Source of the DNA: an uncultured Candidatus Peribacteria bacterium
GTDB lineage: Bacteria; Patescibacteriota; Gracilibacteria; UBA1369; 2-02-FULL-48-14
NCBI GenBank assembly: GCA_964516995.1
Contig: CAZFAV010000004.1
Coordinates: 18,689 to 82,688, forward strand
Direction of reading: 5' to 3'
DNA: 64,000 nucleotides
This document shows positions 5,055 through 58,440 of this stretch, one piece after another. The position numbers were made by a program, and so were the translations under genes. Under the pieces are notes generated by a model that was not told the origin of the DNA, ran no database searches, and saw only the letters and a program-made list of their open reading frames with translations. Each line of letters opens with the position of its first letter. Position 1 is the stretch's first letter.

Positions 5055-5063
5055 ACAGGAGGG

Positions 5064-12019: not shown

Positions 12020-12034
12020 GTTCCAATAGAGAGC

Positions 12035-12063
12035 TTGTCCTGTCGACCTTTTTCCGATATAAA
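12035..12063 (+). promoter_or_regulatory. Candidate internal promoter upstream of P3
   Basis: TTGTCC (12035-12040), a 17-nt spacer, then TATAAA (12058-12063). The ATG lies at 12081. Confidence 0.4.
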
Positions 12064-12080
12064 TAAGCTCTTTGATTTTT

Positions 12081-15317: not shown

Positions 15318-15347
15318 GCTGGTATAGTGCTGCAGTTCCCTATAAAT

Positions 15348-17767: not shown

Positions 17768-17793
17768 AGTGTTGTAAAGTTTTTTCTACAATA

Positions 17794-17822
17794 ATTTTAA
17801 TCTGTTATAAGTATAATTTCAA
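17794..17822 (-). promoter_or_regulatory. Candidate promoter for TrmB-2
   Basis: On the minus strand, TTGAAA (17817-17822), a 17-nt spacer, then TAAAAT (17794-17799). The ATG lies at 17767. Confidence 0.45.
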
Positions 17823-17831
17823 GCAAATCGT

Positions 17832-17860
17832 ATGACAATATTTACAAAATTTGCTATGAT
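17832..17860 (+). promoter_or_regulatory. Candidate promoter for the csaA-like/P6-P8 block
   Basis: ATGACA (17832-17837), a 17-nt spacer, then TATGAT (17855-17860). Its -35 lies 9 nt from the -35 of the divergent TrmB-2 promoter. Confidence 0.45.
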
Positions 17861-17919
17861 GGGTACTAGCATTTAGAAAACAGGGCCAAACCCCTGTCCG
17901 TTTATTTCATTTGTCTTCT

Positions 17920-18252
17920 ATGGCGACTATCGACGATTTCAATGCCTTAGACATCCGCGTGGGTAAAATCACAGCGGCAGAACCCTTCCCTGAGGCACGA
18001 AAACCTGCTTACAAACTCACCATAGACTTTGGTCCAGAAATTGGACTGAAGCACTCTTCAGCTCAAATCACTCAGCATTATGAACGTGAAGCTTTGGTGG
18101 GTCGTTTGGTGCTGGGCGTGGTGAACTTTCCTCCTCGGCAAATCGGGCCTTTTCAATCTGAAGTGCTAACTTTGGGTTTGCCCGATGAAAATGGAGACGT
18201 GGTCCTTATTCAGCCTGATAGAGATTTACCCTTAGGTGGTCGCCTTTTCTAA
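17920..18252 (+). CDS. csaA: CsaA/YgjH-like tRNA-binding domain protein
   Basis: DIRVGKITAAEPFPEARKPAYKLTIDFGPEIGLKHSSAQIT...LVGRLVLGVVNFPPRQIGPFQSEVLTLG matches the OB-fold tRNA-binding (EMAP/CsaA) domain pattern. I prefer the ATG at 17920 to the TTG at 17911. Confidence 0.75.
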   Translation: MATIDDFNALDIRVGKITAAEPFPEARKPAYKLTIDFGPEIGLKHSSAQITQHYEREALVGRLVLGVVNFPPRQIGPFQSEVLTLGLPDENGDVVLIQPDRDLPLGGRLF

Positions 18253-18253
18253 T

Positions 18254-23299: not shown

Positions 23300-25558
23300 A
23301 TGGAATTTCTACAGATTGTACTAGAACAGGGAACGGCCGAAGGGGCCAAAAAAGAGCATTTATTCCTCCAATTTTTGGAGAATCTACACAATACGGCCCA
23401 TCATGCCCATTTGTCTCTGGAGCTCTTTGGTTACAACCAATACACCTATTTTTTCATAGGTTGTGAGCCCAATATGACCAAATTGATTGAAGGAATGATC
23501 TATTCCCTCTTCCCCAACTGTGAAATTCGTCCGATGAAGGATTATACGAATTTTTATGATCCTAGTAAGCAGTTTTTGGCCGGAACCCGTGTGGGGTTCC
23601 AAATGTCTGATATTTATCCCATCAAGACTTACGAAGAATTTGAGCTCGACTCTCTTTCGGGTCTTTTTTCCGTAGTGTCTAAACTGGGCCGCAATGATCA
23701 AGCGTGGGTTCAAATTTTGGTGAATCCTCGCGAAGAAGACTGGCAGTACCATTTGGGTCGCCGTATGAAGATGCGTTTTAATAATGTGAAGCGTAATTTT
23801 CGACTTAAAAACTATACCCGTTTAAAAGACAAAAAAGAGTTTTTTGAAGAAGAACATCATGACTTTGTGCATAAGAGTGAACATCACCCTTTTGAAATTG
23901 AAGTTCGCTTTGGTGCCGTGGCTAGCAGCGAATCTGAGGCTCAATCTAACCTTTTAGCCCTAGCCAAGGCCTTCTATCAGTTCAATAAAACGGACCGCAA
24001 TCATTTTATGGTGGAGCGTATCAAGATGGGAAATTCTTTCCTAAAAGAATACCAACATCGACACATTAAAAGTCCGATGATGGTGAGCGCTCATGAACTC
24101 GCGACTCTCTACCACTTCCCCAACTCCGATCATGTTCCTCACGTGGTTCATATACTCGCGAAGAAGCATGAACCTCCCAAGAATTTGCCTTCTAATCCGG
24201 GCCCAGAAATTTCCATGTTTGGAACCACCAACTATCACAACAATTTTCAAGACTTCGGGATTAAACGTGCCGATCGCCGCCGCCACCTCTATGCGGTGGG
24301 GAAGAGTGGTACCGGTAAGTCCAAACTCTTGGAACTTTTGATTAAGAGTGACATTGAGGCAGGAAAAGGTGTGGGGGTACTCGATCCGCACGGAGACTTG
24401 GTGGACAATATTTTGCGCTTTGTACCGGAACATCGCATCAAGGATGTGATTCTCTTTGATCCCTCCGATACCGAGTTCCCCATCGCCTTCAATCCACTCG
24501 AAAAAGTGGATGAAAAGTTTAAAATGCAGATCACGATTGGGTTCATCGACATCTTTAAAAAGCTCTTTGGATCTAACTGGAGCAACCGTCTAGAACACGT
24601 GCTGCGCTATACCACTTTGGCTCTGCTCGACTCGCCCAACACTACGGTGCTCTCCATTTTGAAAATGCTTTCTGATAAAAATTACCGTCAGAAAATCATT
24701 GCGCGCATTGAAGACAGCGTGGTGAAGAATTTCTGGGTGAATGAGTTTGCCGGATGGAGTGAAAAATTTGATTCTGAGGCCATTACTCCGCTCCTCAATA
24801 AGGTCGGGCAATTGGTGTCTACCAACATGATTCGTAACATCATTGGTCAGCCTAAGAACACCTTCAACATTCGTGAGATCATGGATGGAGAAAAAATTCT
24901 TCTCATGAAAGTCTCTAAGGGTCTTTTGGGAGAAGAAAACGCTGGACTGCTCGGTTCTATGATCATTACTAAGATCTACCAGGCGGCCATGGCGCGAGCC
25001 GATATGCGTGAAGAAGATCGTAAAGATTTCTACTTCTACGTGGACGAGTTCCAAAACTTTGCTACTGATACCTTTGCGGAAATTTTATCTGAAGCTCGTA
25101 AATATCGCCTCTGTTTGACCATCGCCCACCAGTACATCGGGCAGCTGGAAGAAGAGGTCCGCAAAACGGTGTTTGGTAACGTGGGGTCGATGGTGAGCTT
25201 CCGTGTGGGAGCCGAAGACGCCGCTGTGCTTTCTGAAGAATACACTCCTATTTTTGGAGTACGTGACATCATCAACCTGGGTGTGCGAGAATTCTATTTA
25301 AAGATGTCTATTGATGGGGAACTCACTGAAGCTTTTTCTGGTAAAACACTGGGTATTGAGTATGGAAAAGTGGATCACACTCGAGCCATCATAGAGGCTT
25401 CTCGTGCGGCCTACTGTGCTTCTCGTGAAGATGTGGAAGAAAGCCTTAAAAAGTGGGACGAAGGAGGCGAGGTGGATGCGATGGCTCCTGCTTCTACGAG
25501 CAGCTCCGCCAATGATGTGATCCAAGAATCTCCGGAATTTGAAATGCCATTGATTTAG
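23300..25558 (+). CDS. P-loop NTPase of the TraD/VirD4/TraG coupling-protein type, soluble (no N-terminal TM helices)
   Basis: Walker A 'AVGKSGTGKSKLLE', Walker B-like 'FYFYVDEFQNF', and 'LTIAHQYIGQL...VFGNVGSMVSFRVG', typical of the TraG-D C-terminal region. The first ~300 aa have no hydrophobic segment and no domain I recognise. Confidence 0.65.
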   Translation: MEFLQIVLEQGTAEGAKKEHLFLQFLENLHNTAHHAHLSLELFGYNQYTYFFIGCEPNMTKLIEGMIYSLFPNCEIRPMKDYTNFYDPSKQFLAGTRVGFQMSDIYPIKTYEEFELDSLSGLFSVVSKLGRNDQAWVQILVNPREEDWQYHLGRRMKMRFNNVKRNFRLKNYTRLKDKKEFFEEEHHDFVHKSEHHPFEIEVRFGAVASSESEAQSNLLALAKAFYQFNKTDRNHFMVERIKMGNSFLKEYQHRHIKSPMMVSAHELATLYHFPNSDHVPHVVHILAKKHEPPKNLPSNPGPEISMFGTTNYHNNFQDFGIKRADRRRHLYAVGKSGTGKSKLLELLIKSDIEAGKGVGVLDPHGDLVDNILRFVPEHRIKDVILFDPSDTEFPIAFNPLEKVDEKFKMQITIGFIDIFKKLFGSNWSNRLEHVLRYTTLALLDSPNTTVLSILKMLSDKNYRQKIIARIEDSVVKNFWVNEFAGWSEKFDSEAITPLLNKVGQLVSTNMIRNIIGQPKNTFNIREIMDGEKILLMKVSKGLLGEENAGLLGSMIITKIYQAAMARADMREEDRKDFYFYVDEFQNFATDTFAEILSEARKYRLCLTIAHQYIGQLEEEVRKTVFGNVGSMVSFRVGAEDAAVLSEEYTPIFGVRDIINLGVREFYLKMSIDGELTEAFSGKTLGIEYGKVDHTRAIIEASRAAYCASREDVEESLKKWDEGGEVDAMAPASTSSSANDVIQESPEFEMPLI

Positions 25559-35841: not shown

Positions 35842-36315
35842 ATGAATCTACTGAAGCTGAGCGTTTTGGGTCTTGGATTAGCTGGAACTGCAGAAGCGTC
35901 AGAAACGGCTTTGCGTGAGCTTACAGCACCCTATTCGGAGACTGTTCACGGACAGCTGAGGGTGCGCCCGGCTTCTGAGGACAACCGGACTGCGCTGGCC
36001 TATTTGGTGGTCAATGAAGTACCCAATCCGTCTTTTCATGAACAACTTTTAAAAGCAGCACAAGAAGGTGGCGCTCTCCATTTAGAAGGTAATACTGTTT
36101 GGCTCCGCTTGGGCTGTCTTCGGGGTGATGAAGTTTTGGACCAAAGCGGCAAACCCGTAGTGAGCAACCTTCCACTCTTGCACAATGCTACTTATCTGCA
36201 TTTAGCCGAGGTACGTTTGGATTTTGATGTGGGGCTTTCCGAAGCTGTTACGGGGCTGTGTAGCTCACCTGTGGACCGTGCTACCGTTGTGGGCTTTACT
36301 GGTACAAAAGATTGA
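35842..36315 (+). CDS. Hypothetical secreted protein
   Basis: Signal-peptide-like MNLLKLSVLGLGLAGTAEA. No recognisable domain. The 3' end overlaps the convergent DUF4012 gene by 20 nt. Confidence 0.5.
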   Translation: MNLLKLSVLGLGLAGTAEASETALRELTAPYSETVHGQLRVRPASEDNRTALAYLVVNEVPNPSFHEQLLKAAQEGGALHLEGNTVWLRLGCLRGDEVLDQSGKPVVSNLPLLHNATYLHLAEVRLDFDVGLSEAVTGLCSSPVDRATVVGFTGTKD

Positions 36316-38392
36316 GACTAAGATCTTGATCAAAAGATCCAGATACAAAGTAATCTCTACCCGGTTGAATCTCTGTGGGGACAGGGCTAGAGGACAGAAG
36401 CGTGCGAGTTTCTGCGGTGACGGATTCTTCGTAGGTTACGTTTTTTAAACCTGGTTGTTTGAACCATTGGAAGTTGTAATTTTGGAAAGATCCTTGAAGT
36501 TTGAGCGGTAGTGCAAATTGCAGTGTGATGGTTTGGCTTTCACCGGGCAGAAGCGTTTGGTCGAAGTAGTAGTATGATAGGTCCTGATCGGAGTCGTAGA
36601 AAATCCGTACATCGTCACGATAAATTCCGCTTGAATCAAGGAGGGTGGCTCCTTCGGGCAAATAGAGGCGGATGGCTGCTTTATTGGGAGCATTGCCCAT
36701 GAGAGCTTCTAAAGTACCCGTCCATGCCGTGAACCCATATTCTCGCGTGGTCTGCTTGAGCCAAGCGAGGGTGTTGTCGTTAAAGGTGTGAGTGCGAGTA
36801 AGACTGACCGTAGCCACCATACTGCCATCCTCTAAAATTTCGGTATCGTGCGTAAGCTTAGTTTGAATGTAACGCTCTGTTTTATTCCCGCTGATGGTCT
36901 CTACAGTAGGCATGTAAAAGTCCCCTTCTAATGTAGAAAGTTTTGGGATAGATCCCTCCATTCCAAGATCAGTGAAGAGTTTTTCTACGCGGGGATCTTT
37001 GTGATAGAAGAGCAGTTGTTTCTTTTGAATTTGCTCCCATGCGGTTCCTCCCAAAGCAGCAGCGGTTTGTGGGTTACTCGCTTTTTCCATAAAGGCATTC
37101 AGCAATTCTCCGAGCACCGCTTTGGGGGTGGTCTTGCCAAAAGTCTTGGCTTCCACCAATGTGCTCAAAACGGCGGGGAAAGTTTCGGCGGAAAGAGCCT
37201 TAGACAGTGAGGGCAAAGTGAGCGCTCCCGTGTCTTCCATAAAAGCTTGAGCGGCAGAAAGATTGACGGCAATGACTCCATCTACACCGGGGCCTCCTTC
37301 TTGTTCTAAAAACCACGCGCTTTTTTGAGCAGAAGTGGGGAAATCAGGTGAATAGTTGCTGTCACGTAGACGCCACTGAGTGGTGAGTCCGGTGAGCTCA
37401 GGGATGGGTACCGGAATGTCTTGATAACTGCGGTTGTCGAACTCGTAAACATCGTGGAAGTCGAGTGGTGAAAGGCGTCCGTCATTGAGAGTCACTAAAA
37501 CAAAGCTTCCAATAAATCCTCCACCCAGGCGCATTTCATCATTGTTCTGCAAAAGTACAAGGTAGGTTTGAGGAGTCTTGTCTCCCAGAGCGGTGAGGAG
37601 CGGATCTTTAACACTCACCCATAGATTGAGGAGGTTCGATAGCGCAGCTAATTTGTCTTCGTATTCAGCGAATTGAACTTGATATTCTGTGCCCGAAAGA
37701 TCCACATTTTCTAAGAGTGTTTGGATCTGATTCATTTGCTCGGCGGCGGGCTCTAAATCGGCTTCGGAAACGGTGCGAAGATAGTCGGTGAGGGAGCCTT
37801 CTGGGGGAAGCTGCGTGAGTGAACTGCGTGCACTGGAGAGGTGCTTCCCTACTTCGGCCATCAAAGATCCGGCGTCTAAAACATTGCTGAGGCTCTGCAC
37901 AGGACCAGGTTCGTCCAGCCAAGGTGAAGCCGCGGTGAGCAAGAAGGCTCCTTTGTTTTTGGCTTCATCAAAAAGCTGCTGAGCTTGATCAAACATCAGG
38001 AGGTCAGCCCCGCTTTCTCCCGATACAAAAGACTGACTCGCTCCTTTGAGTGACATAAAACCTTCTGCTGCCAAGGCGAGAGCTTCCTCTCCCTGGTTTT
38101 TACCCAGAAAGATCATCTGACCTACGTTGAGTGCTAAGATCATAAAGAGCGCGGCTACCAGCATGGGGATACGCCCCAATCCGCGTCGACGACTAAAGTT
38201 TTTTCCTACAATATGAATTTTTTCTGGACTGGAATTTTTGAATTCAATTTCTTTCTTGAGGTCCACGGTGACTCTTTCGTGGGCCTTTTTTTTGCTGGAA
38301 GCGTCTACGTTTTTTAAATCAATGACATGACTGGATGCCTTGGGGTTGTCCCGAGGAGGCGTGTTTTCTGGACCGATGTCGAGCCTGATCAT
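36296..38392 (-). CDS. DUF4012 domain-containing membrane-anchored protein
   Basis: One TM helix (IPMLVAALFMILALNVGQMIFL) and the DUF4012-like core 'LLQNNDEMRLGGGFIGSFVLVTLNDGRL'. Family assignment is from memory of the motif, not a search. Confidence 0.6.
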   Translation of the reverse strand: MIRLDIGPENTPPRDNPKASSHVIDLKNVDASSKKKAHERVTVDLKKEIEFKNSSPEKIHIVGKNFSRRRGLGRIPMLVAALFMILALNVGQMIFLGKNQGEEALALAAEGFMSLKGASQSFVSGESGADLLMFDQAQQLFDEAKNKGAFLLTAASPWLDEPGPVQSLSNVLDAGSLMAEVGKHLSSARSSLTQLPPEGSLTDYLRTVSEADLEPAAEQMNQIQTLLENVDLSGTEYQVQFAEYEDKLAALSNLLNLWVSVKDPLLTALGDKTPQTYLVLLQNNDEMRLGGGFIGSFVLVTLNDGRLSPLDFHDVYEFDNRSYQDIPVPIPELTGLTTQWRLRDSNYSPDFPTSAQKSAWFLEQEGGPGVDGVIAVNLSAAQAFMEDTGALTLPSLSKALSAETFPAVLSTLVEAKTFGKTTPKAVLGELLNAFMEKASNPQTAAALGGTAWEQIQKKQLLFYHKDPRVEKLFTDLGMEGSIPKLSTLEGDFYMPTVETISGNKTERYIQTKLTHDTEILEDGSMVATVSLTRTHTFNDNTLAWLKQTTREYGFTAWTGTLEALMGNAPNKAAIRLYLPEGATLLDSSGIYRDDVRIFYDSDQDLSYYYFDQTLLPGESQTITLQFALPLKLQGSFQNYNFQWFKQPGLKNVTYEESVTAETRTLLSSSPVPTEIQPGRDYFVSGSFDQDLSLNLLYQ

Positions 38393-38401
38393 GCGAGGCG
38401 T

Positions 38402-39874
38402 TCAAGGAGTGGAAAGTTGAACGACTGAGCGGCTAAAGCTTCCGTCATCAAAGAGTTTACGTGCGGTAATGATGGTGTCGAAGTCGCTCAGAAGCGTCTT
38501 TAGTATAGACCCTTCTGGGAGGAGTAGACAATGGAGAGTAAAAAGCTCATCTGAACCTGTTATTAAGCTGTCCAAATTGTCCAGAGTTCTTGGAGCTTGA
38601 AGACCTAAGCTGCGATCGAGGGCTGTAAAGACCGTTTGTTCTTGCCCGCCAATGAGGGCCAAGTTCTCTGTGAGAAGTACTGTCGCAACTGCGTTTCCTT
38701 CGGCGGAAAAACTATAGTACTGGTAACCTTGATATTGACTCGTAGATTCTTCTACAGGGATCCATTCAGCACGGGTTTCTCCGCTCTCGATACGATAGGT
38801 TTTTCCGTAAAGAAAATACTCAGCAAAAAGGTCCTTCAACTGAAGAGCCTGAGTGACTTCTTCGTTTGAATCGAGCTGCGTGATAAACAAAAAATCAGAT
38901 CCTGGAGTAAAACCAAGATACTGCTCACCATTAAGGAGCGGCATAAGTTGAATGCCAAAGTCGACATCGGGGCCGAATAAATTTTCGACTTTATTCTGGA
39001 TCTCTTCGTCCCAAGCTTGAGCAGCGAGCGGGGTCCGTTTTTTAAGTACATTTTGGACTTGTGCCCACTGCTCTCCCAGATTTTGTCCACCCCACTCCAC
39101 TGCAAAAGATTCTGACGTCCATGGTAAGAGGCGGCCTGAATATTTTTCTGTGGGGTGCCAGTAAGCATCGTCTTCGATTAAAGTTTTGTCGATCGCCAGA
39201 GTGCTTTCTACCTGCCATTTCTGATTGAAACGCAAACTCATTCCAACGGCCGGATAAAGAGCAAGGAGGGGTTCTAAATTAGGGAAATCTTCTTGGTAAC
39301 GAGGAAAGACTTTTTGCAGGTCAGCATAAATAAAGCCATCCCTCCAAGAAGCTAACCTTCCTCTGATGTTTTGATAATTTGAACTGCTTTTTAAACTGTC
39401 CTCCTCGCCACTGGCTACTTTTTGGACAGTGCTCAAAAGATCCTGATCCTCCGACAAGAGGAGTAAATCTCCCATCCAGGTAAAACAAGGTTGTGATTTT
39501 TTTGAATAACAGGTGACTTGGCTCCACAAAGAGGCTGTGGCCCGTGTGCTTTCCCATGTCTCTCCCTCTGTTTTCAAACTCTTCAAATACTGCTCTGCAG
39601 CTTCGCTAGAATTGATTTGCAAAATGGTGAGTTTGGCGTTGTCCACCGTAGCGCTACCGTAAGCATCTACCCACGGCTCAGATACGTAAGGACTTTTAAG
39701 TACTGTGCCCGTATGAGCCGTTTTGACAAGGTAAAAACTCTCTGTTTCTAAAGGTAAAATCTCAGCCAAATCTGGCAAGCTGGTCCATTTAACAAAAATT
39801 GCCGCAGCGATTAAAAGTACCCCCAGCAGTATGCTGAGTGCAAAAAGCGCTTTCACAAGAATTTGCTTTTTCAT
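38402..39874 (-). CDS. Hypothetical membrane-anchored protein
   Basis: I chose the start at MKKQILVKALFALSILLGVLLIAAAIFV (N-terminal anchor), followed by a large extracytoplasmic-looking domain with no motif recognised. Confidence 0.6.
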   Translation of the reverse strand: MKKQILVKALFALSILLGVLLIAAAIFVKWTSLPDLAEILPLETESFYLVKTAHTGTVLKSPYVSEPWVDAYGSATVDNAKLTILQINSSEAAEQYLKSLKTEGETWESTRATASLWSQVTCYSKKSQPCFTWMGDLLLLSEDQDLLSTVQKVASGEEDSLKSSSNYQNIRGRLASWRDGFIYADLQKVFPRYQEDFPNLEPLLALYPAVGMSLRFNQKWQVESTLAIDKTLIEDDAYWHPTEKYSGRLLPWTSESFAVEWGGQNLGEQWAQVQNVLKKRTPLAAQAWDEEIQNKVENLFGPDVDFGIQLMPLLNGEQYLGFTPGSDFLFITQLDSNEEVTQALQLKDLFAEYFLYGKTYRIESGETRAEWIPVEESTSQYQGYQYYSFSAEGNAVATVLLTENLALIGGQEQTVFTALDRSLGLQAPRTLDNLDSLITGSDELFTLHCLLLPEGSILKTLLSDFDTIITARKLFDDGSFSRSVVQLSTP

Positions 39875-39969
39875 GCTCGGGCTACTGTAGCATCTCTTTA
39901 TTTTTCTCGAAAGCCTGTGTAAAATCTGCCCACACTGCACACAACGCTGTGCTCCTCTAAAAAGTACTT

Positions 39970-48869: not shown

Positions 48870-51800
48870 TTACTGAAGAGGGATTCTCAAGATGCCCATC
48901 GTACCCATTTCGGGATGATGCCTCTGCTCATCAAAGCAAATTTTTGCTTTACCTTGATAGACTACAGCTCCATGTCTTCCTTCTGGCGCCAACTGAACCA
49001 TCATTGCTCTACTTCCGTAGTGACCTTTAGCTCTACTAGCGATCTGCTCGATTTCAGAATTAGTAGGGATGGTTAATCCTTCGCTTAGCATTAAACTCGT
49101 ATTATTTTCTATAAATGTTTTACCTTGTGTGTTTCTGTGCATTCTACAATCTGCAATTTTTAAACATTGATCTTCCACCCAAAAAATTGTTTCTCCATCA
49201 CTACCCTTTTCTATGTACTCCAAGCTATTGATAAAAGATTGGCCGGTGAGTGGATTCTCTCTTCCCAGTGCTTGGCCAATTTCTTCCAAAGAAATGTCTG
49301 CTTCGGTTCCAGCTGGGTACTGTTTTCCGTAAGATCTAATGAGACCTTCCACGCGAGGATCTTTCGAGAGATTCACTTCTACTATTCGTGGATATTCTAT
49401 GCCACCCATCGCTGCCAATTCATGAGCTTTTTCTGGATCTATAGTCAAGCACTCCATTATCCAAGCTATTTTTGATTTTTCCGGAGTTTTTTTCACTTCA
49501 TCTATAGCAGCTTTAGCATCTTCAGTCGCAAATCTATATCTAAGAGCTAGAGCAGCTAATACCATCCAAGTTTTACCCTTAAATCTGTTTGGCTTGTTTT
49601 CAATAATTCTTTTTAAGAGAGGTCTCAATTTTGTGAATTCTATTTTCTCAGTAGCTTTTTGCCTAAACACTCCTACCCTCCTTTCTTTTCCTAAAAAGAT
49701 ATCTATGTAAAAAAGTTCCGGGGCAGTTTCTAAAATGGTGGCTAGTATTCTTTCATCTTCTGTCTCTACGCACTTCTCTAAACAAAAAAGTACGAGCTCC
49801 TCAAGAATGCAATCTGTAGCTCCTTGAAATTCAGGTTTACATAGTATTATAGAGATATTCTTAAGAATATCTCTATAAATAGTCTTCGCTATTTGTTCTC
49901 CAAAAATCATCTCAAGATCTAAGGCATAAAGATATCGTATATTTCGGGTAATTAGCTCAAGCACTACTTCAGAAGCTTCATCTACCAATCCAGCTAAAAG
50001 TAATGCCCTAACTAGAGTAAATTGAGCTTTAACGTTTCCTTTATCGGCTTCCACTGCTCTTCTTAAAGATGTAAGCGCTTCTGGCAATTCACCTGTTTTT
50101 GATTTTAATCCGGCATATTTTGTCCATGCCTCAGAGGCTAATTCCACATTTTCTGACATTCTTCCAACTATTCTATACCGCTTCATTGCTTCCTCATCCT
50201 CACCTAAAACTTCCGCCGATACACCTGCCCCATATTGATTACCCATAACCGTAGGATCTGCTTGAACTCCTTCCATAAATAACTTCAGTGCCTCTCGAAA
50301 ATCTTCATGAGCTTCCGCACTTCTTAAAAATACCGTTCCTTGCCTCAACCTTTGTTTAGCAACATTTCCAAGACTATCTTCAGTTAGATCTATTAACCTT
50401 TCAAGTAAAGCGTTGCCCTGTTGAACTTCTTTTTGGATATTTGCGTTTCCTCTTTCGAGCGTGGAGTCTATTTGCCTTAATTGAGACAAAATAGCTGCTT
50501 TTGAAATAGCAATTTGTGTTGCTATGGCATCCAGTGCCTCTAGCCCTAAATTGACTCCACGCTCCAAAACCCCATTTACTTGTGAGAACCCGTAATTCAT
50601 TGCTTCTATGAACCCTGCTGCTAGCTCTTCTAAATTTACTAAATGCTGATTAGTACCAACTATCCCAACTGCAATGTCTGATAAAAGGTGATTGCCTCTT
50701 TCCCGCTGTGCTATTTCATGCTCTTGACCGACTACTAATATTTCTCCCAATACAGTGTGTCTTCTTAGCTCTCCTATTCCTATCTCTCGCTGATCTATGG
50801 CTTTGTCTCCTTGGATAAGTAAGTCAATTAAACTGAAACTCCTTTCTAGTGCAGAACCATCTACACGAGCTTCTCTATACCTTTTTTTAACTTCATAACT
50901 TATTCCTTCCACAACTAAGTTATTATTACTCATGTCTATGAGTAAATCCTCTTCAATGGTTGACTGACGGGCTTGATCACACACATTTAAAAGTGCATAA
51001 GCATCTTGAATGAAACTTTCAACATCCTGATTAGGGAACTCCCCCACAACTTTTTCCAACCTTCTTAGTTGTTGAACTGCACCGTCTCTTGTTGCTCTTT
51101 TAGCCAGTCTACTTGGATGGTCTACTAGGGTGAGTATCTCGCGACCCTCTCTTTTTAAAGTTGCGTCTGCGATTTTATTTTCAATTACACCCTCAATAAA
51201 TCTTTTGGCCGTAGGTGATGCGAGCCTCGTGTCCAGTAATAACTCTAAATCCCCGCTTGCATCTTCATTTAGTAAGCCATTTTGATGTGCTGAAAGAATT
51301 TGCATGAAACGCGTATTAGTGCGGATGAACTCTCTAGGTGTTTCTTTAGTATACCGAGGTCCTTGTGCCTCTCTGGCTTGTCTCGCTAAAGCGCTGCCAG
51401 AAGAAACTACCTCCCTCCCTACTGCACGAACAGCAGATTCCACCTCATGGACTGCATGGGTTGTGTGGTCTATCCGTCTACCTAAATCATCAAACCCTCC
51501 GGCAGTAAGTTTGGCCAAACTTCTTGTTTCCCCTATGAGCCCATTAAAACCACCTTGTGCAATCCTCGCGAGTACCCTTGTCTCTTCTAATAAACCTTCG
51601 CCTCTCTGGTTTAAAGCACCCATTTGAAAAGCAGCTTCTTTTAAAACTCTCTGCGTTTCGTATGCTTTTTTGTCGAAGTCTTCCCTTCTTACTACCGTAC
51701 TTCCTCCATGCAACCCTTTTAGAGCTGTCACGAGTTCTCTCTGTAAAACTAAAGTGTCTCCATGTCTTTGTGCTTGTTCCTTCCTCGCTCTATGCAGTTC

Positions 51801-51905
51801 ACTTACAATCCTTCCATCTGGTGTACGACTCAAGCTATAAGAAGGTGTCCCATAAAACACGCTTTCGAAGAATCGATCGCTTTGAACATCTGTACTTCGA
51901 GCCAT
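48870..51905 (-). CDS. Giant hypothetical protein G3 (1011 aa; TPR-like central region)
   Basis: Uninterrupted ORF with no signal peptide or TM. Short tandem 'ETR-x-LA-x4-GGF-x2-L' repeat at residues ~108-140. TPR-like helices around residues 520-650. The 3' two-thirds are AT-rich. No enzymatic motif recognised. Confidence 0.75.
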   Translation of the reverse strand: MARSTDVQSDRFFESVFYGTPSYSLSRTPDGRIVSELHRARKEQAQRHGDTLVLQRELVTALKGLHGGSTVVRREDFDKKAYETQRVLKEAAFQMGALNQRGEGLLEETRVLARIAQGGFNGLIGETRSLAKLTAGGFDDLGRRIDHTTHAVHEVESAVRAVGREVVSSGSALARQAREAQGPRYTKETPREFIRTNTRFMQILSAHQNGLLNEDASGDLELLLDTRLASPTAKRFIEGVIENKIADATLKREGREILTLVDHPSRLAKRATRDGAVQQLRRLEKVVGEFPNQDVESFIQDAYALLNVCDQARQSTIEEDLLIDMSNNNLVVEGISYEVKKRYREARVDGSALERSFSLIDLLIQGDKAIDQREIGIGELRRHTVLGEILVVGQEHEIAQRERGNHLLSDIAVGIVGTNQHLVNLEELAAGFIEAMNYGFSQVNGVLERGVNLGLEALDAIATQIAISKAAILSQLRQIDSTLERGNANIQKEVQQGNALLERLIDLTEDSLGNVAKQRLRQGTVFLRSAEAHEDFREALKLFMEGVQADPTVMGNQYGAGVSAEVLGEDEEAMKRYRIVGRMSENVELASEAWTKYAGLKSKTGELPEALTSLRRAVEADKGNVKAQFTLVRALLLAGLVDEASEVVLELITRNIRYLYALDLEMIFGEQIAKTIYRDILKNISIILCKPEFQGATDCILEELVLFCLEKCVETEDERILATILETAPELFYIDIFLGKERRVGVFRQKATEKIEFTKLRPLLKRIIENKPNRFKGKTWMVLAALALRYRFATEDAKAAIDEVKKTPEKSKIAWIMECLTIDPEKAHELAAMGGIEYPRIVEVNLSKDPRVEGLIRSYGKQYPAGTEADISLEEIGQALGRENPLTGQSFINSLEYIEKGSDGETIFWVEDQCLKIADCRMHRNTQGKTFIENNTSLMLSEGLTIPTNSEIEQIASRAKGHYGSRAMMVQLAPEGRHGAVVYQGKAKICFDEQRHHPEMGTMGILRIPLQ

Positions 51906-51931
51906 GGTTCTAAAGAGTAGTCAGATCGCTT

Positions 51932-51960
51932 AAATTACCCTCGAATGTGTGAGTTGTCAA
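51932..51960 (-). promoter_or_regulatory. Candidate promoter for G3
   Basis: On the minus strand, TTGACA (51955-51960), a 17-nt spacer, then TAATTT (51932-51937). The ATG lies at 51905. Confidence 0.45.
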
Positions 51961-52024
51961 TCGTGCTGCGTTTTAAATTGTTGTCAGGGTTTAGCAACTC
52001 TAATTTAAACCTCCTCTCAGTAAA

Positions 52025-54418
52025 CTACGTAAAAATGACATCGTAGTTTGTACCAAAGGTGAGACATTGGTTCACTTGCGCTAATGCTATGCGGAAAGCA
52101 TTCGCTTGAGTACTTGCCGCAACATTTGTCCTCAAAGGTCCAGTGGTGACCCAACCACTTACTAAATCGTCCATTAATTTTACATTCTGCGCCACCTCTC
52201 CTCTGGTTGGGGTTCTTGCTGGTGCAATACCTAAAAGACGATTGCACTGATCACGAGCGATGGCCTTATCTGCCGGGTTGATTGCGGCTGCACCTGTACC
52301 ATAAATAATACCAAAATTCGCTCCAAAAAGACCTGATGAGAATTCATTGAGGACATCGCTCATTTCTTGACTAGTTCTTGCACCGGTAATTCTTCCAAAC
52401 GTATCCTGATAGAGATCCCTCTTTTCCGGTCCATTGGAAATCAGGGCCACCAAGTCGACAGGAGGAGTAACCGTGGTGTCGTAGAGTGCATTGAGAACCG
52501 CTGTTAAATCGGCGGCCATTGCAGCGTGAGCAGTCGCTTCTGTGGAACCTGCCGTAAGCCGTGCTGGGTTAAAGCGCGTAATAAAGTTGGTGATAAAGTT
52601 GGCCAAACGAGGTCCCGTGTTTACCGTATCGTTACCCGTAAGTTGTTGAACGAGTCTCTTGTAACCCTCTCGTTTCGTAGTATCCACGCAAGCAGCTTGT
52701 ATTTCTGCGCGTTGCAAGAGAGGTCCAAAATGAAGCGTGAAGTCACCGGTGCGGTAGCTGCGGAGGAATTGATCTTGATCTGCTGGTTTTTCGAGACCCA
52801 AAACGATTTCTCCAAAGCTTTTCATCTTTCCGAGACCGAGTTCCATGGTCTTTGGGTCGGAATGGTAGAGTGCTTCCACTAAACTACCGTAAGCTCCCCC
52901 TGCTGTGCGTTGAGGAACTCCGGCGCGAGCAGGAGCTGCTGCGGCCAAGTTGTTGAAGACGGTCACCAAGAAAGCATTGAGCTGATCGAAGTGAGTTTGA
53001 GCCTCACCCGTATAGGCCGTTCTTTCTCCCAGTTTAGAGTCGGTGGTCCCAGGAGCAATACCTCCTAAATCTAGAACTGTGCCCGGTGCTGCTGGAGAAT
53101 GGGTGCGCAAAATTTCGTAAATTTCGATGGGCAAAGTGTCTGGACGCAGCTTGGTCGTCGCTTTGAGATTGAACAGATTTTTAAGCAAAGTTTTGATTTC
53201 CTCTCTTCCCTCTGGAGTCACCAAATCATTTTCTAAACGACCAGGATTGAGAAGTTGTGCAAAAGTCGCTCGAAAGGCGTCGGCATTAAAGTTTTCTAAG
53301 AAAGCTTCACGCGTCGTACCACTTTGCACTTGAGCGTCTATGCTGGCTCCAAATTCTGTGTACTTGATGTCTACCTTGGTCCTATCTTGTGGGTAAAGGC
53401 GGTCCAAAGTTCCGACTACTGGAGGAACGGCGGCGGTGTTGGACGCGGTTAAGAGCGTCATGGCGTTGGCGTAGATTTGAGCAAATTGCAAATGATTGGC
53501 ATCGTCTTGAGGATTGCGAAGTCCGTGACGATGACCAGCGTCTACAATGTATCGATCGGGATGCATAGGATCGGGGACAATGTGTGCCCCCCAACGGCGC
53601 ATGATTTCTGTGGTCATGGTTTCTACTTCATCTCGGGTGAGGTCATCGTCCAGATTGAAAAGAATGCTGCATTCTTTTTTAATGGCGGCTCGACCCGCAG
53701 GACTGCCCATGCTATGGCGGAACATTGCTGGATTAGAGAGCCGTCGGAGGCGTGTAGTGAGGGCAAAGCCGTTTCCAAAACCACGGCAAAGATTTTCTAC
53801 ATCGTGGTGAAAGTGATGTGTCCGGTGATCCACAAAACTGAGCACCTGTCCTCCCAGATTGTCCCAAGTGGGAGTTAAAGGAGTGACGGGGTGTTCTGGG
53901 ATTCCAAAAAGCCAGCCAGCTAAACGAGCCACCGCTTTTTTTGTGTAGGATGAGCGAAATAAATCCCAATCCGCGAGATCAGCAAAATGACCCCAAGCAT
54001 GCTCTATATCGTGTTGAGAGAGGTTGCCCTCCACTCGTTTATCGTTGAGTTCTCCCAAGCTTTCTATCGCTTCTAACAAGTCTCCTTTATCCCCTGGAAT
54101 GAGTCGTCTTAAGAAGGATTTTTTTTCTCCTTTGACGTGTCCATGTCCATGCCCATGTTCTCCTTCTTTTTTTGAGGAATCACCGTCTCCTTTGGGATGA
54201 TCTGGCTTAGGATGACCTCCACCCTTTTTATCGGCTTCTGCAGGATGATCTTCTTTTGTACCTAAAGCTGCATTGGTCACATTGCTAAAGGCTTGTCCAA
54301 ATTGACCGAGGGCGGCCATGACTGAAGGGTCTGCCCACGGATTAACCGAGGGGGCAGAAGGGGCTCCTGAGGGAGCGCCTGTAGGTCCGTGGTTGGGGTG
54401 ATGAGGTCCTGCGACCAT
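52025..54418 (-). CDS. Giant hypothetical protein G2 (797 aa; His-rich N-terminus, internally repetitive)
   Basis: Uninterrupted GC-rich ORF. N-terminal 'KEDHPAEADKKGGGHPKPDHPKGDGDSSKKEGEHGHGHGH'. In frame with G1, 9 nt after its TAA. No recognised domain. Confidence 0.75.
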   Translation of the reverse strand: MVAGPHHPNHGPTGAPSGAPSAPSVNPWADPSVMAALGQFGQAFSNVTNAALGTKEDHPAEADKKGGGHPKPDHPKGDGDSSKKEGEHGHGHGHVKGEKKSFLRRLIPGDKGDLLEAIESLGELNDKRVEGNLSQHDIEHAWGHFADLADWDLFRSSYTKKAVARLAGWLFGIPEHPVTPLTPTWDNLGGQVLSFVDHRTHHFHHDVENLCRGFGNGFALTTRLRRLSNPAMFRHSMGSPAGRAAIKKECSILFNLDDDLTRDEVETMTTEIMRRWGAHIVPDPMHPDRYIVDAGHRHGLRNPQDDANHLQFAQIYANAMTLLTASNTAAVPPVVGTLDRLYPQDRTKVDIKYTEFGASIDAQVQSGTTREAFLENFNADAFRATFAQLLNPGRLENDLVTPEGREEIKTLLKNLFNLKATTKLRPDTLPIEIYEILRTHSPAAPGTVLDLGGIAPGTTDSKLGERTAYTGEAQTHFDQLNAFLVTVFNNLAAAAPARAGVPQRTAGGAYGSLVEALYHSDPKTMELGLGKMKSFGEIVLGLEKPADQDQFLRSYRTGDFTLHFGPLLQRAEIQAACVDTTKREGYKRLVQQLTGNDTVNTGPRLANFITNFITRFNPARLTAGSTEATAHAAMAADLTAVLNALYDTTVTPPVDLVALISNGPEKRDLYQDTFGRITGARTSQEMSDVLNEFSSGLFGANFGIIYGTGAAAINPADKAIARDQCNRLLGIAPARTPTRGEVAQNVKLMDDLVSGWVTTGPLRTNVAASTQANAFRIALAQVNQCLTFGTNYDVIFT

Positions 54419-54427
54419 AGAAATAGG

Positions 54428-57400
54428 TTAAGCGGCGTGTTTAGCGTGATCTTCCTTGGGATGATCTTCCTTGGGATGATCTTCTTTGGGATGATCTTCT
54501 TTGGGATGATCTTCTTTTGATTTTCCTCCAGCTACTACCGTGAGGGCTGGCTTCCCCTTCTTAGCAGCGGACTTTCCTCTTTCTACTGTCGCTTTTCCAT
54601 CAGCACCTCCAAAGAGATCGGGCACTAAGTTACGAGACCAATATCGTCCGTGTTCGCTTCCAGCGAGAGTCACTCCCACAAAAGTAGGAACTGCGCCTAA
54701 AGCACCCCAAACTAAACCAGCAGCTCCTGTGGGAACAGCGGCTACGGTGCGGAGGGCTTTATCGGCGGTCCATTGGAGCGCATTTTTAGCTCGGCGTAGT
54801 CCGTTGCCCATCCACGTAAAAGGACTGGTCCATCCCTTAGCTTCTTTCATTTCTGAATAGTTCGGCTCATCAAAGTAATTCCAGGCGTTAACGGCTCCTG
54901 CGCTCATTTCGGTGAGCGGTTCTCCTAAACCAGCAGCAACTCCATTTAGAGCGCCTGCCACTAAGAGTCCACCTCCTTTGGCCACTGCTGGAATCGATTT
55001 GATCCCTGCCACTCCTACATCGATTCCCTTACCAATCAATTTGAGTGCGCCGTAGCTCACGACTGCAGCGGTTCCCGCTACGGCTACCCCAGCTCCAATG
55101 GCCACATTACGCACTAAGTTAGGAAATCGACTAGGCGCAGCGGGGGCTGCTGGTCTTGCGGGTGCCGCAGTTCCGGCAGGTGCATTGGTGCCGTTCCACC
55201 AGTTTCTTACACGATTGAATTGATTTCTAAAAAAACCAGGGCTTGCTCGAGTAAGGTCCCGAGCAGTTTGCCATCCTTGTTGCAAATCGTTTCTCACCCA
55301 ACGCCCAGCCCTTTTCACAGGACTCGTGCGGTCGGCTGTTTGAAGGCGAACAATTTCATCGTAAATATCACCATAAAATCCAGGCTGAATTTCTTCTGCT
55401 TGTCCAGGATTCGCCCCATCTAGTGCGGCGCGGAGGTCATTCACGATTTGGTCACGAGTCATTCCCTCGGCTTGCATTTCGGTCACCATGGGGATGAGAT
55501 TGTTGGCTGTAATGTATCGTCCCAAAGCTGCTCGGACTTCGGCTTGCTCGCGGCGAGCTTGAAGCGTTCCTACTAGGCGGTCCGCTCCAGCATTGCCTGC
55601 GTTGACCACTGCACGGCCTATTCCCCTTAGACGATCTCCATCTGTAGTTTCTGTAGAACCGCGGCGTACACGTTGAATGGTGCCCGTGTCCTCGTCCACT
55701 ACAAAACTAACTCGATCTGCTGGTCTCAAATGCGCAGCTTCCTCAGGAGGCGTGCCGTCTGGAATTTGTGCCGTTCCAGTATTGAGGCTCTGCGCCACCT
55801 GTTGTAAAACGTCGTTGTCTGCTACTCGTACATGAGTTTCGTTTCCATCTTCATTCAAAACCACGTTTCCTTCATCATCTAAGTTTCGGCGATACACTTC
55901 ACCCTGATACAGGAGGACGTTCTCAGGTTCACCTGCTAAGTCCACACCTACTGTTCCATTGACTCCTGTTCTGGTGGTTTCCGCTGCGGCGCGTTCCCTC
56001 ACTACTTCGCCAATTTGTCCTTCTACAGCGGCGCGAGCTCCCAGGGCTGAGCGTGCGGCACCCGTCAAGGCGCCCCAAGCTCCTGAAACTGCTCCAGTCA
56101 CTGCAACCTGAGCCTGTTGAAGACGAGTTGGGGGGGCTGGCCTATTGTGTCGAGCTAAACGCCCTCGGGCTGTTCCTCTTTGGGTTTCTAGCTCACCGAT
56201 GCGAGTTCGGATTTCAGTGATCGTTGCTAAGGCGGAAGTGATCGTAGCCAAGGCCTGTGCCAAATGGTCTCTTCTTTCTGTGTAACTACGAACCAGTCCA
56301 GCTCTATTAAAAGTTTCTGTCGGGAGGCCTGCTATGGTTTGTTCTAAGTGTGTTTGAGTTTGTGTGGCTGCGGTTTGTAAATGGGTGAGATAAGCTTCTA
56401 TTTCACCGAGTTCTTCACCTGTGGCAGTCAAAGTGGCGTCGTCGGTTTGCTCATTGATGGCTGTGTTTAAAGCAGCTAATCTTTGAGTATTTCCTGCTAA
56501 GGCTAGATCAGAGCCCCTTGTCGCTATATTTTCGAAAGAATCTTCTTCTGCTTGTGTGAGGCCTCTGCGTGCTTGCATCTCACCTTGTAAGACTCCTTCT
56601 TGGACAGAGAGATGAGCAGATACCTGTGTTCTTAATTGAGTAAACCCATCAATCGCTTCCCTCAAACCTGCGGGCCGGATTAGATTATTCAAACTTGTGA
56701 AATGAGGTTCTGAAAGGTTGATCCCTCGTTTGGTAGCCATCTCTTGGATGCGCCCCCCCACTGTTTCTAAGGCTGTTAAAGCCTTAAGCAGATCGTTGAT
56801 AAGAACCCTCGTAGCCGCTTCTGGATTCCCTGTGCTATTACTCGTAGTGATTCCCGTCTGATAACCTGCAACAAAGACTCTGGCACTCGCTGTTGTGGCA
56901 CATTGTTTTGACAAATGCAGGAGGCTCCATCCAGACTCTGTATCGATTTCTTCGGCTACACGGCCCCATTCTGTGTTTGCTTCTTGGACAAAGCTGTTTA
57001 TATCGGCCAGTTCATCTAAGCGTCTCGAAGCCTGATCTCGGAGTGTAGTGAGTTGGCTTTTCAGTGCGGCGCGTCCTTCTTCCCTGCCGATCAAAAGATC
57101 AGAGAAAGGAGTTTTTGTGAGATCTATTTTTTCGCTTCTAGCTTGTTCCCCTAAGGCCTGCTCGTAACGGTCAAATTCGTGCAAGGTGTGCAAGTACTCA
57201 TTGAGTTCTTCATGAACTGCCCTGGTGCCTGCATGGTTATTCTGTGCTTTATGAAGCTCGTTAGAAAACCTGCGTGCTGCGGTGTCCGCGGTAGCAGAGC
57301 TAGCTGCTGCCTGAAGGGTTTCTTGGTGCCGAGGAAGAGATCCTAAATTCTTTCTATTGCCTCCCCACCTAGAGACGAACGCTGTTTCGGCTCTTTGTCG

Positions 57401-57844
57401 ATCTTCGGCTACTTTTCTCTCTGCATCAACACGGGCTGTCTCGGCTTCTTCTTTGGCTTTATGCGTTGCAGCGGCTCTACGGAGTTGCTCTCTCATTACT
57501 TCGATCCATGCATCGGGCACCGTGCGATCGTTTCCTCCATCGGAAAGAATGAGCTGGAAGAGGGGGTGATTGCCGTTTCTGTTGATTTGCACGTGACCGT
57601 GGTCGCGACGAAGAGGCGCATTGAGCACATGACGAACCTCGTCGTATTCCTGTGGATTAGGTGCGCGCTCTGTACCGCGGTCAATGATCGTGAGTCGGCC
57701 AGCTTCTATGCGAAAAGCACGAGGTCCTAAATGCTCCCTTAAATTTCCTACGGCATTCACATTTCCATCTGCGTCCACTTGCAGCCTTTGGGCTACTTCG
57801 GGGAGGAGACTTCGATCAAAGCTTTGATCTGTGTTTGATGCCAT
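54428..57844 (-). CDS. Giant hypothetical protein G1 (1138 aa; coiled-coil-rich, C-terminal Gly/Ala-rich hydrophobic region, KEDHP x5 tail)
   Basis: Uninterrupted GC-rich ORF behind a near-consensus promoter. Long Ala/Glu/Arg/Gln-rich helical stretches. Hydrophobic Gly/Ala segments encoded at 54662-55108. No recognised domain. Confidence 0.8.
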   Translation of the reverse strand: MASNTDQSFDRSLLPEVAQRLQVDADGNVNAVGNLREHLGPRAFRIEAGRLTIIDRGTERAPNPQEYDEVRHVLNAPLRRDHGHVQINRNGNHPLFQLILSDGGNDRTVPDAWIEVMREQLRRAAATHKAKEEAETARVDAERKVAEDRQRAETAFVSRWGGNRKNLGSLPRHQETLQAAASSATADTAARRFSNELHKAQNNHAGTRAVHEELNEYLHTLHEFDRYEQALGEQARSEKIDLTKTPFSDLLIGREEGRAALKSQLTTLRDQASRRLDELADINSFVQEANTEWGRVAEEIDTESGWSLLHLSKQCATTASARVFVAGYQTGITTSNSTGNPEAATRVLINDLLKALTALETVGGRIQEMATKRGINLSEPHFTSLNNLIRPAGLREAIDGFTQLRTQVSAHLSVQEGVLQGEMQARRGLTQAEEDSFENIATRGSDLALAGNTQRLAALNTAINEQTDDATLTATGEELGEIEAYLTHLQTAATQTQTHLEQTIAGLPTETFNRAGLVRSYTERRDHLAQALATITSALATITEIRTRIGELETQRGTARGRLARHNRPAPPTRLQQAQVAVTGAVSGAWGALTGAARSALGARAAVEGQIGEVVRERAAAETTRTGVNGTVGVDLAGEPENVLLYQGEVYRRNLDDEGNVVLNEDGNETHVRVADNDVLQQVAQSLNTGTAQIPDGTPPEEAAHLRPADRVSFVVDEDTGTIQRVRRGSTETTDGDRLRGIGRAVVNAGNAGADRLVGTLQARREQAEVRAALGRYITANNLIPMVTEMQAEGMTRDQIVNDLRAALDGANPGQAEEIQPGFYGDIYDEIVRLQTADRTSPVKRAGRWVRNDLQQGWQTARDLTRASPGFFRNQFNRVRNWWNGTNAPAGTAAPARPAAPAAPSRFPNLVRNVAIGAGVAVAGTAAVVSYGALKLIGKGIDVGVAGIKSIPAVAKGGGLLVAGALNGVAAGLGEPLTEMSAGAVNAWNYFDEPNYSEMKEAKGWTSPFTWMGNGLRRAKNALQWTADKALRTVAAVPTGAAGLVWGALGAVPTFVGVTLAGSEHGRYWSRNLVPDLFGGADGKATVERGKSAAKKGKPALTVVAGGKSKEDHPKEDHPKEDHPKEDHPKEDHAKHAA
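54446..54520 (-). repeat. 15-bp tandem repeat x5 encoding (KEDHP)n at the G1 C-terminus
   Basis: Plus-strand units are gtgatcttccttggg / atgatcttccttggg / atgatcttctttggg / atgatcttctttggg / atgatcttcttttga at 54446-54520. Confidence 0.9.
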
Positions 57845-57873
57845 ACATTGATCTTAAAAATCAATATTACATT

Positions 57874-57902
57874 ATTATAACGTAGATCTGTTTTTTAGTC
57901 AA
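57874..57902 (-). promoter_or_regulatory. Near-consensus sigma70-type promoter for G1
   Basis: On the minus strand, TTGACT (57897-57902), a 17-nt spacer, then TATAAT (57874-57879). The ATG lies at 57844. An inverted repeat ATTGAT-N7-ATCAAT (57847-57865) lies between the -10 and the start codon. Confidence 0.6.
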
Positions 57903-57966
57903 TCCCTTCTGAAATTTAATATGCGTTTGAGCTATTCAAAAATTTAAAAATCCTTACTATGAGGCC

Positions 57967-58440
57967 ATGGACCGCAAAGAAGCCACAAGACTCGACCGCG
58001 TTTGGATGTTTTTTGCCCCGATTTTTGTCGGACTTTTAGCTTTGGACCAGGTCACCAAATGGTGGGCAGTGAATCATGTGGCTCCAGAAGCGAATGTGGA
58101 TTTTGGCTTTTCTCTGGTTTACAACCGAGTGCTTTTGTTCAACATTTCTCTGCCTCAGTGGGCCATTTATATTCTCACTTTTTGTATTTTAGCTCTGGGC
58201 GTTTATCTGGTACTCAAAAATAAGATGTGGGAACAAAAAATTCACCTGGTGGGTTTTGCCCTCATTTTGGCGGGTGCCATTGGTAACTTGATCGACCGAC
58301 TGCATTATGGAGCGGTGGTGGATTTTATCAAAGTCTATTGGTGGCCCAATTTCAACCTGGCAGACGTATTTATTGTGAGCGCCGTGGTGATTTTGGCTTG
58401 GGACATTTTGTTCCACGAAAACGCGCTCGATGATCTTTGA
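57967..58440 (+). CDS. lspA: Lipoprotein signal peptidase (signal peptidase II)
   Basis: LDQVTKWWAV, GAIGNLIDRLHYGAVVDFI and NLADVFI motifs. 157 aa, 4 TM helices. Confidence 0.85.
   Translation: MDRKEATRLDRVWMFFAPIFVGLLALDQVTKWWAVNHVAPEANVDFGFSLVYNRVLLFNISLPQWAIYILTFCILALGVYLVLKNKMWEQKIHLVGFALILAGAIGNLIDRLHYGAVVDFIKVYWWPNFNLADVFIVSAVVILAWDILFHENALDDL

Follow-up and report, generated by a model that had tools for sequence, protein, structure and literature searches.

Adjacent, co-oriented open reading frames (ORFs) that are collinear with a single ORF in relatives are known as 'Rosetta-stone' fission/fusion pairs, and an ORF lying in frame behind a single stop codon may instead be reached by read-through, as in the Q-beta coat/A1 case, where read-through takes place at a leaky UGA. 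TAA is read by both bacterial release factors and represents the least leaky stop codon. Among membrane proteins, the chlamydial Inc proteins and the translocators of type III secretion systems (T3SS) are anchored by paired Gly/Ala-rich hydrophobic segments. Where genes lie close together, reinitiation after termination falls sharply as the distance grows, with little of it left at about 20 nucleotides (nt) or more, and subunits of complexes are over-represented among such pairs (PMC10666635); in E. coli and Haloferax, a distance of 9 nt or more already lowers reinitiation (Huber et al. 2019 PMC6728339, 2023 PMC10666635). Here we analysed a stretch of 64,000 nt from an uncultured Candidatus Peribacteria bacterium (GenBank assembly GCA_964516995.1, contig CAZFAV010000004.1, positions 18,689 to 82,688 of the forward strand), in the following called the window, in which two minus-strand genes, G1 and G2, follow each other in a common frame with one TAA and 9 nt between them. 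The comparison with orthologous loci indicates that G1 and G2 are very probably two separately translated, co-transcribed genes that arose by fission of a single gene, and not the two parts of a read-through product.

The pair and its junction consist of the following features:

54428 to 57844, minus strand: coding sequence of G1, 1138 amino acids (aa), with an N-terminal domain, a Gly/Ala-rich membrane domain and a His-rich tail
54428 to 54430, minus strand: stop codon TAA of G1, with a stop at the equivalent position in ten out of ten split loci
54419 to 54427, minus strand: spacer CCTATTTCT, 9 nt, containing no G and no Shine-Dalgarno (SD)-like sequence
54416 to 54418, minus strand: start codon ATG, the first codon of G2
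52025 to 54418, minus strand: coding sequence of G2, 797 aa, ending with the stop codon TAG at 52025-52027

Read on the minus strand, the junction runs GAT CAC GCT AAA CAC GCC GCT TAA CCT ATT TCT ATG GTC GCA GGA CCT, the part around the stop translating into H-A-A-stop-P-I-S-M-V-A-G-P. The initial annotation had claimed a common frame and a single TAA between G1 and G2, and this is borne out by coordinates and sequence (57844-54418 = 3426 = 3 x 1142); a read-through product, if made, would comprise 1939 aa. The TAA and the spacer are also present in Logan contig L001, which begins inside a repeat encoding KEDHP near the end of G1, and in JGI contig L002, which is 99.5% identical to the window with 92 mismatches over 19,574 positions. 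Since the TAA is seen in three assemblies, it did not come from faulty assembly of a single data set.

Orthologous loci were collected from the contigs of G2 homologues and from 80 metagenome loci anchored on FtsW, and were searched with two profiles, one for G2 and one for the membrane domain of G1. In this way, ten independent split loci were obtained, the window included, all of them in the slot lspA / G1 G2 / ftsW-murG, with the following G1 stop codons, distances to the ATG of G2 and relative frames:

Window: TAA, 9 nt (CCTATTTCT), in frame
L003: TAA, 9 nt (TTTATTCCT), in frame
L015: TAA, 9 nt (TCAACAACT), in frame
L091: TAA, 9 nt (AATAAACTT), in frame
L090: TAA, 18 nt, in frame
L014: TAA, 8 nt, out of frame
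L004: TAA, 14 nt, out of frame
L006: TAA, 17 nt, out of frame
L088: TGA, 19 nt, out of frame
L005: TAA, 22 nt with a further stop in the G1 frame, out of frame

In all ten loci an ATG lies 8-22 nt past the G1 stop, which is TAA in nine and TGA in one. Orthologues with the two genes in different frames, which the initial annotation had held to speak against a continuous polypeptide, make up five of the ten loci, the remaining five keeping a common frame, a proportion that chance would yield readily (binomial P of at least 5 out of 10 at 1/3, about 0.21). On these counts, the common frame in the window is no more than the chance level, and its presence in only half of the split loci implies that it was inherited or is accidental, without a function of its own. 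The spacer codons of the in-frame loci (PIS, FIP, STT, NKL and THQYLF) show no conservation; pooled, the ten spacers comprise 134 nt with only 2 G and 81% A+T, and by this composition they have the look of an unstructured initiation region rather than of coding sequence. The split loci that carry the stop include lineages whose G2 is only 21-30% identical (21-62% for the nine further loci), and judged by this spread the TAA of G1 is a genuine and ancient termination site.

Fused forms of the two genes exist as well. Comparing orthologous loci for a fused or a split state had been proposed by the initial annotation, and both states were found: next to the ten split loci there are two proteins, P0008 (1354 aa) and P0009 (1105 aa, from locus L007), each encoded by a single ORF in the slot lspA / one ORF / (TPR gene) / ftsW-murG. 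In both, the G1 membrane domain is joined directly to the head helices and modules of G2, without a His-rich linker; the G2-like part starts past residue ~500 (E = 9e-12 and 2e-11 to G2), and the G1 membrane profile matches L007 with E = 1e-51. These collinear single ORFs in the same syntenic slot support the proposal that the polypeptide was formerly continuous. Additionally, in the deeper-branching loci L010, L013, L016 and L019 the slot is occupied by a single ORF (863-1197 aa), in the middle of which L010, L016 and L019 have the G1 membrane domain (domain E = 1e-5 to 1e-7), a G2-type part following in L010 (E = 4e-5) and L013 (E = 3e-10). By these scores L010 and L013 appear to be weaker fused cases, and L016 and L019 are less secure still. 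In more distant Peregrinibacteria, with FtsW ~50% identical, no such gene was found.

In a tree of FtsW, a single gene (neighbour-joining (NJ), 200 bootstraps), all split loci together with the fused L007 form one clade with 90% support. L007 is nested within the split clade, the group of the window, L004, L090, L008, L005, L006 and L007 obtaining 99%, and monophyly of the split loci without L007 obtaining 0%; the remaining fused forms fall into a sister group with weak support (40-50%). Read most economically, this topology points to an ancestor with the fused gene, to a single fission where the clade begins and to one re-fusion in L007. Because both major split sub-clades contain the arrangement of TAA, 9 nt and ATG in frame (window and L003 in one, L015 and L091 in the other), it was probably the original split form. 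Such a layout is what a point nonsense mutation in the linker would leave behind, the other spacers presumably being products of later insertions and deletions, and with an in-frame spacer, re-fusion requires a change of one base.

The direction may also be turned around, with the two-gene state ancestral and P0008, P0009, L010, L013, L016 and L019 as independent fusions; at no time would the lineage of the window then have had G1 and G2 in one chain. The nested position of L007 among the split loci speaks for this, so at least one fusion occurred, as do the modest support of 40-50% for the sister group, the outgroups, which lack the genes and so show no root state, and the in-frame spacer, from which a one-base change would yield a fusion. 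It would, however, need several independent fusions at the same point instead of one fission and one re-fusion, and a single clade, supported at 90%, has both the His-rich ends and the stop/ATG layout as shared derived features; we regard this direction as rather unlikely. Programmed or conditional read-through, in which some ribosomes decode the TAA to give a functional 1939-aa G1-PIS-G2 fusion, draws on the common frame, on a 9-nt spacer without a stop, on the recurrence of exactly TAA plus 9 nt in frame in four of the ten loci (plus one with TAA plus 18 nt in frame) and on the natural fused orthologues, from which a covalent G1-G2 chain must be viable. Against this stand the five loci that are out of frame, one of them, L005, with a second stop in the G1 frame, the use of the least leaky type of stop in nine of ten loci, the lack of a stimulatory RNA structure (z = -0.77), and the unconserved spacer codons, with a conserved ATG and N-terminus past every stop. 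Accordingly, the 'conditionally continuous' polypeptide of the initial annotation finds no support in the loci compared here, and we consider read-through as a programmed event very unlikely.

That G1 and G2 are merely adjacent, with no functional relation and with a coincidental frame and His-rich sequence, would fit the short gaps that are usual in the window (median 16 nt) and the three other 9-nt in-frame pairs found there; it does not fit their being neighbours in all ten split loci, their collinearity with single ORFs in the slot and the His enrichment at precisely the two facing ends, and is in our view extremely unlikely. The chance that the TAA represents a recent nonsense mutation, turning one long gene into an incipient pseudogene, or a sequencing or assembly error is practically negligible: the common frame, the low complexity on both sides and the fused orthologues are compatible with it, but the stop is found in three assemblies, one of a strain 0.5% diverged, and in nine further loci, and both halves are intact and conserved, G2 having 13 homologues. 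Of the two forms in which the initial annotation had raised this, the recent mutation conflicts with a stop common to lineages with G2 only 21-30% identical, and the sequencing error with its presence in all three assemblies.

Several observations weigh against gene fission followed by separate translation, or against parts of it. The five of ten loci in frame are slightly more than one third, a non-significant excess among loci not independent of one another, and low-level read-through of the in-frame TAA of the window may occur. The 9-nt spacer is longer than the overlaps that are optimal for reinitiation (PMC10666635), so the coupling of the two genes may be weak. The order of fission and then re-fusion rests on a single-gene NJ tree whose outgroups lack the genes; in L016 and L019 the similarity to G2 is not significant, and L013 has no score with the G1 membrane profile. 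Furthermore, the association of G1 with G2, the topology in the membrane and what the His-rich ends do are putative parts of this account.

Signals for expression are in line with co-transcription, and one further feature was located upstream of the pair:

57874 to 57902, minus strand: promoter-like site TTGACT-17-TATAAT upstream of G1, 11 of 12 consensus matches

Within the scanned region 51800-58200 this is the sole promoter-like site, and between G1 and G2 neither a promoter-like site nor a minus-strand terminator-like site was found. The RNA fold around the junction was no more stable than that of shuffled sequence, and scans of the window with Rfam and for tRNAs gave no match. The initial annotation had remarked on the lack of an SD-like sequence in the gap, which is true and yet uninformative, because SD cores are rare throughout the window: a 4-nt SD core at -20 to -4 precedes only 3 of 45 ORFs, compared to 12% of random positions. 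From these numbers, this lineage appears to initiate translation essentially without SD sequences. Reassignment of the stop codon, with TAA as a sense codon, was considered and rejected, as the 45 ORFs of the window end with TAA (19), TGA (17) and TAG (9), so that each of the three terminates, and as the out-of-frame G2 of relatives follows a TAA. Regarding the spacing, the three other same-strand pairs with a 9-nt in-frame gap, counted on maximal ORFs, lie at 4083-6434, 13728-17018 and 36296-39940 of the window; a gap of 9 nt may be a favoured stop-to-start distance in a genome without SD sequences, or an artefact that arises when ORFs are extended to the first possible start.

The G2 protein has the following features, the conserved motif lying within the head:

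54095 to 54418, minus strand: head of G2, residues 1-108, disordered and partly His-rich, AlphaFold2 predicted local distance difference test (pLDDT) below 50
54245 to 54358, minus strand: head motif SAPxxNPWxDPS...FG...AALGxKEDH, residues 21-58, conserved in the orthologue P0002
52025 to 54094, minus strand: all-alpha body of G2, residues 109-797, about four related modules

Independent initiation of G2 at the ATG of 54418 is well supported by the alignments, and in the out-of-frame loci the own ATG of G2 is, as far as the reading frames tell, its sole possible start. In the window, this ATG is the only in-frame ATG, GTG or TTG between the TAA and the head motif, and the N-terminus MVAGP recurs in P0010, P0012 and L091. 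Met34, the start chosen by the JGI gene call in L002, was rejected, as residues 21-33 are conserved and Met34 corresponds to a Leu in P0002. As a separate observation, the first 15 nt of G2, ATGGTCGCAGGACCT (54404-54418), are identical at 14 of 15 positions to L091 4001-4015, in a G2 homologue (P0012) that is only ~21% identical overall, and the same is seen for P0010; this identity could reflect constraint on the initiation region, an N-terminal signal or local recombination.

The body of G2 follows the module pattern Y..FG...FL..F....F...F..LL....L......G+.E.K..L..LF.L, with modules of ~100 residues, a repetition which explains the variable lengths of the G2 homologues; in line with related modules, overlapping regions of the G2 profile hidden Markov model (HMM) were matched repeatedly. 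AlphaFold2 on an alignment of 11 sequences predicted a disordered head and an all-alpha remainder with a mean pLDDT of 73.8; the same alignment was too divergent for the design of a sequence pattern. No signal peptide is present. With G2 as the query, HMMER found only 13 matches at E <= 1e-3 among 1.84 billion representatives, namely the orthologue P0002 at 62% identity, stand-alone proteins of 692-1272 aa at 25-33%, and the fused P0008 and P0009. Neither as a single sequence nor as a profile did G2 match Pfam, NCBIfam or PDB sequences; Foldseek against the PDB returned generic alpha-solenoid noise (TM ~0.1), and scans of species-representative genomes with G2 and with G2 plus P0002 gave no matches. 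DUF7355 and SnoaL_4 were rejected as domains of G2, being weak, below threshold and not common to the relatives. The family evolves far faster than its neighbours, G2 having 21-30% identity where FtsW of the same genomes reaches 73-88%. Overall, the G1-G2 family is uncharacterised and, within the databases searched here, confined to one Peregrinibacteria clade.

In G1, the following features were assigned:

54620 to 55132, minus strand: membrane domain of G1, residues 905-1075, from hydropathy, alignments and profile HMM
54431 to 54610, minus strand: His-rich tail of G1, last 60 aa, 10% His, ending with KHAA
54447 to 54517, minus strand: 15-nt tandem repeat encoding KEDHP four times and KEDHA once, 4.7 copies with 98% matches by Tandem Repeats Finder

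The long N-terminal part of G1 looks coiled-coil-like by eye and has no signal peptide. By hydropathy, the membrane domain contains three Gly/Ala-rich hydrophobic segments (910-938, 951-971 and 1033-1063), and its loop motif GWNYP...KGWTSPF is the best conserved part of G1. The profile HMM of this domain matches both split and fused relatives; in a profile search with the domain, the only matches were P0015 and P0016, both short proteins resembling G1, and P0016 carries the name Candidatus Peregrinibacteria. P0001 is a 99% identical G1 homologue in JGI data, and further homologues are encoded in L003, L004, L005, L014, L015, L088, L090 and L091. A word-indexed search with an artificial G1-PIS-G2 fusion returned P0001 alone, low-complexity words having probably crowded the candidates. 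As for G2, neither the single sequence nor the profile of G1 matched Pfam, NCBIfam or PDB sequences. In some relatives G1 has only ~302-307 aa, that is, the membrane domain and the His-rich tail without the ~900-aa N-terminal domain (L005 9070-9978; P0015), which implies that the conserved core of the system consists of the membrane domain and G2. Additionally, we observed that G1 ends with -AA in five of the ten split loci (KHAA, KKAA, AHAA, RKAA and RLAA; window 54431-54436, further including L003, L004, L005 and L006). These ends resemble the LAA at the C-terminus of the ssrA degradation tag, which ClpX recognises, and could mark G1 for proteolysis.

The low-complexity, His-rich theme on both sides of the stop, pointed out by the initial annotation, proved to be real and conserved, and it characterises the split members of the family. 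His was counted in seven split loci, where it makes up 7-25% of the 60 C-terminal residues of G1 compared to 0-5% of the remainder of G1, and 2-11% of the first 110 residues of G2, with enrichment there in most of the seven; the tails and heads of L088, L090 and L091, outside those seven, are visibly His-rich by eye. The fused forms have no comparable stretch, the maximum of any 60-residue window being 3-8%. Going by this distribution, the His-rich ends are tied to the split state. Each of the motifs PHHPNHG, KEDHPAEADKKGGGHPKPDHPKGDG and EHGHGHGH named for the head of G2 was found, while the five KEDHP repeats described before the stop turned out to be four exact copies and one KEDHA. This repeat also seems to be a locally fast-evolving and assembly-fragile spot: Logan contig L001 breaks within it, and between the two 99.5% identical strains it contains a cluster of substitutions (KEDHPKEDHP in one and KEDHHEEDHP in L002, 13330-13400).

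The His-rich tail and head may serve as a docking aid, for example via metal ions, or may merely reflect drift in disordered ends. Combining the observations further, one could imagine the His-rich ends as an evolved, possibly metal-bridged, non-covalent clasp that takes the place of the lost peptide bond, with the in-frame TAA plus 9 nt keeping re-fusion one mutation away, so that lineages toggle between one and two chains, and with a minor read-through isoform in the in-frame lineages; taken as a whole, this is a speculative and improbable combination.

For the two genes as products of fission, we propose the following course. A fused ancestor would have undergone one fission in a disordered linker, with at least one lineage (L007) re-fused. 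G2 would be translated from its own ATG, either by ribosomes that have just terminated on G1 and reinitiate, or by initiation without an SD sequence on the unstructured spacer, the latter presumably being the normal mode of this genome. Termination-reinitiation coupling had been listed by the initial annotation, and it is plausible given spacers of 8-22 nt in ten of ten loci and no signals between the genes; at 9 nt such coupling may take place. G1, having no signal peptide and a basic tail after the last hydrophobic segment, would have a helical hairpin as its membrane anchor, its N- and C-terminus both being cytoplasmic, and G2, likewise without a signal peptide, would dock on G1 at the cytoplasmic face and restore the two-part protein non-covalently. 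Because fused orthologues exist, G1 and G2 probably act as one unit. The constant position beside ftsW-murG may hint at a scaffold of the envelope or of division, a suggestion we make with low confidence.

The genomic context of the pair is conserved, with lspA at 57967-58440 (plus strand) on one side and ftsW-murG on the other; upstream lie Amidohydro_2, Band_7 and aroE (shikimate dehydrogenase) genes, and both the fused and the split forms sit in this orthologous locus. The locus of L005, which is syntenic with that of the window, lies in a complete 1.34-Mb genome (GCA_016699145.1), and NCBI assigns its G1-like protein to a Candidatus Peregrinibacteria bacterium. Downstream of G2, a further gene was found:

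48870 to 51905, minus strand: G3, a TPR protein (TPR_19) of 1011 aa, 119 nt downstream of G2 and possibly in the same operon

G3 occurs in L002 and, behind the fused gene, in L007, whereas L004, L005, L006, L088 and L090 lack it; its GC (guanine plus cytosine) fraction is 0.37-0.42 compared to 0.48-0.52 in its surroundings. Its patchy presence and its composition give G3 the appearance of a facultative gene, possibly acquired, that was inserted between G2 and ftsW.

Elsewhere in the window, the purH and PFOR genes fit the description of Peregrinibacteria (PMC4736985). On the plus strand, 6447-23243 and 23300-25558 contain eight tandem full-length paralogues of ~530-560 aa with 33-47% mutual identity; three of them were tested against Pfam and one against NCBIfam, without a match. 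Two ORFs interrupt the array, one of 470 aa (10607-12019) and one on the minus strand, and directly after the array lies the gene for a VirD4/TraG-like coupling protein. The paralogues are possibly an expanded family of effectors or surface proteins linked to a type IV system.

Taken together, a tempting candidate for recoding is replaced by a documented gene fission, probably with a re-fusion, in a bacterium of the candidate phyla radiation (CPR), and the mechanism would be an ordinary one, namely gene fission and tight operon coupling, in an uncharacterised family. The start of G2 is fixed at 54418, as opposed to the JGI call at Met34. The fused orthologues predict a G1-G2 complex, which offers a testable handle on two proteins without annotation, and the split state together with the His-rich ends poses a concrete small question, that is, how split proteins hold together.

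Compared with known systems, G1 resembles the Inc proteins and the T3SS translocators, a likeness meant as a lead only, by its long soluble N-terminal part and its two to three close hydrophobic segments, while searches by sequence and by profile showed no similarity, the G1-G2 locus has no link to a secretion system and the organism belongs to the CPR. The in-frame ORF after a single stop is shared with Q-beta read-through; unlike there, a TAA serves as the stop, orthologues do not preserve the frame, a conserved ATG opens the downstream ORF, the spacer shows no sign of conserved coding and an RNA element is lacking. With termination-reinitiation pairs (PMC6728339, PMC10666635), G1 and G2 have in common that they are co-oriented, co-transcribed, 8-22 nt apart and probably subunits of a complex, whereas the 4-nt or 1-nt overlap and the SD motif are missing. 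From the Rosetta-stone pairs, the locus differs in that it represents an uncharacterised one-clade family in which both cut ends are His-rich, the fused forms lacking such ends, and in the apparent re-fusion nested within the split clade. It shares with them the collinearity of G1-G2 with P0008 and P0009, the break in a disordered interdomain linker and the alternation of the two states on the tree.

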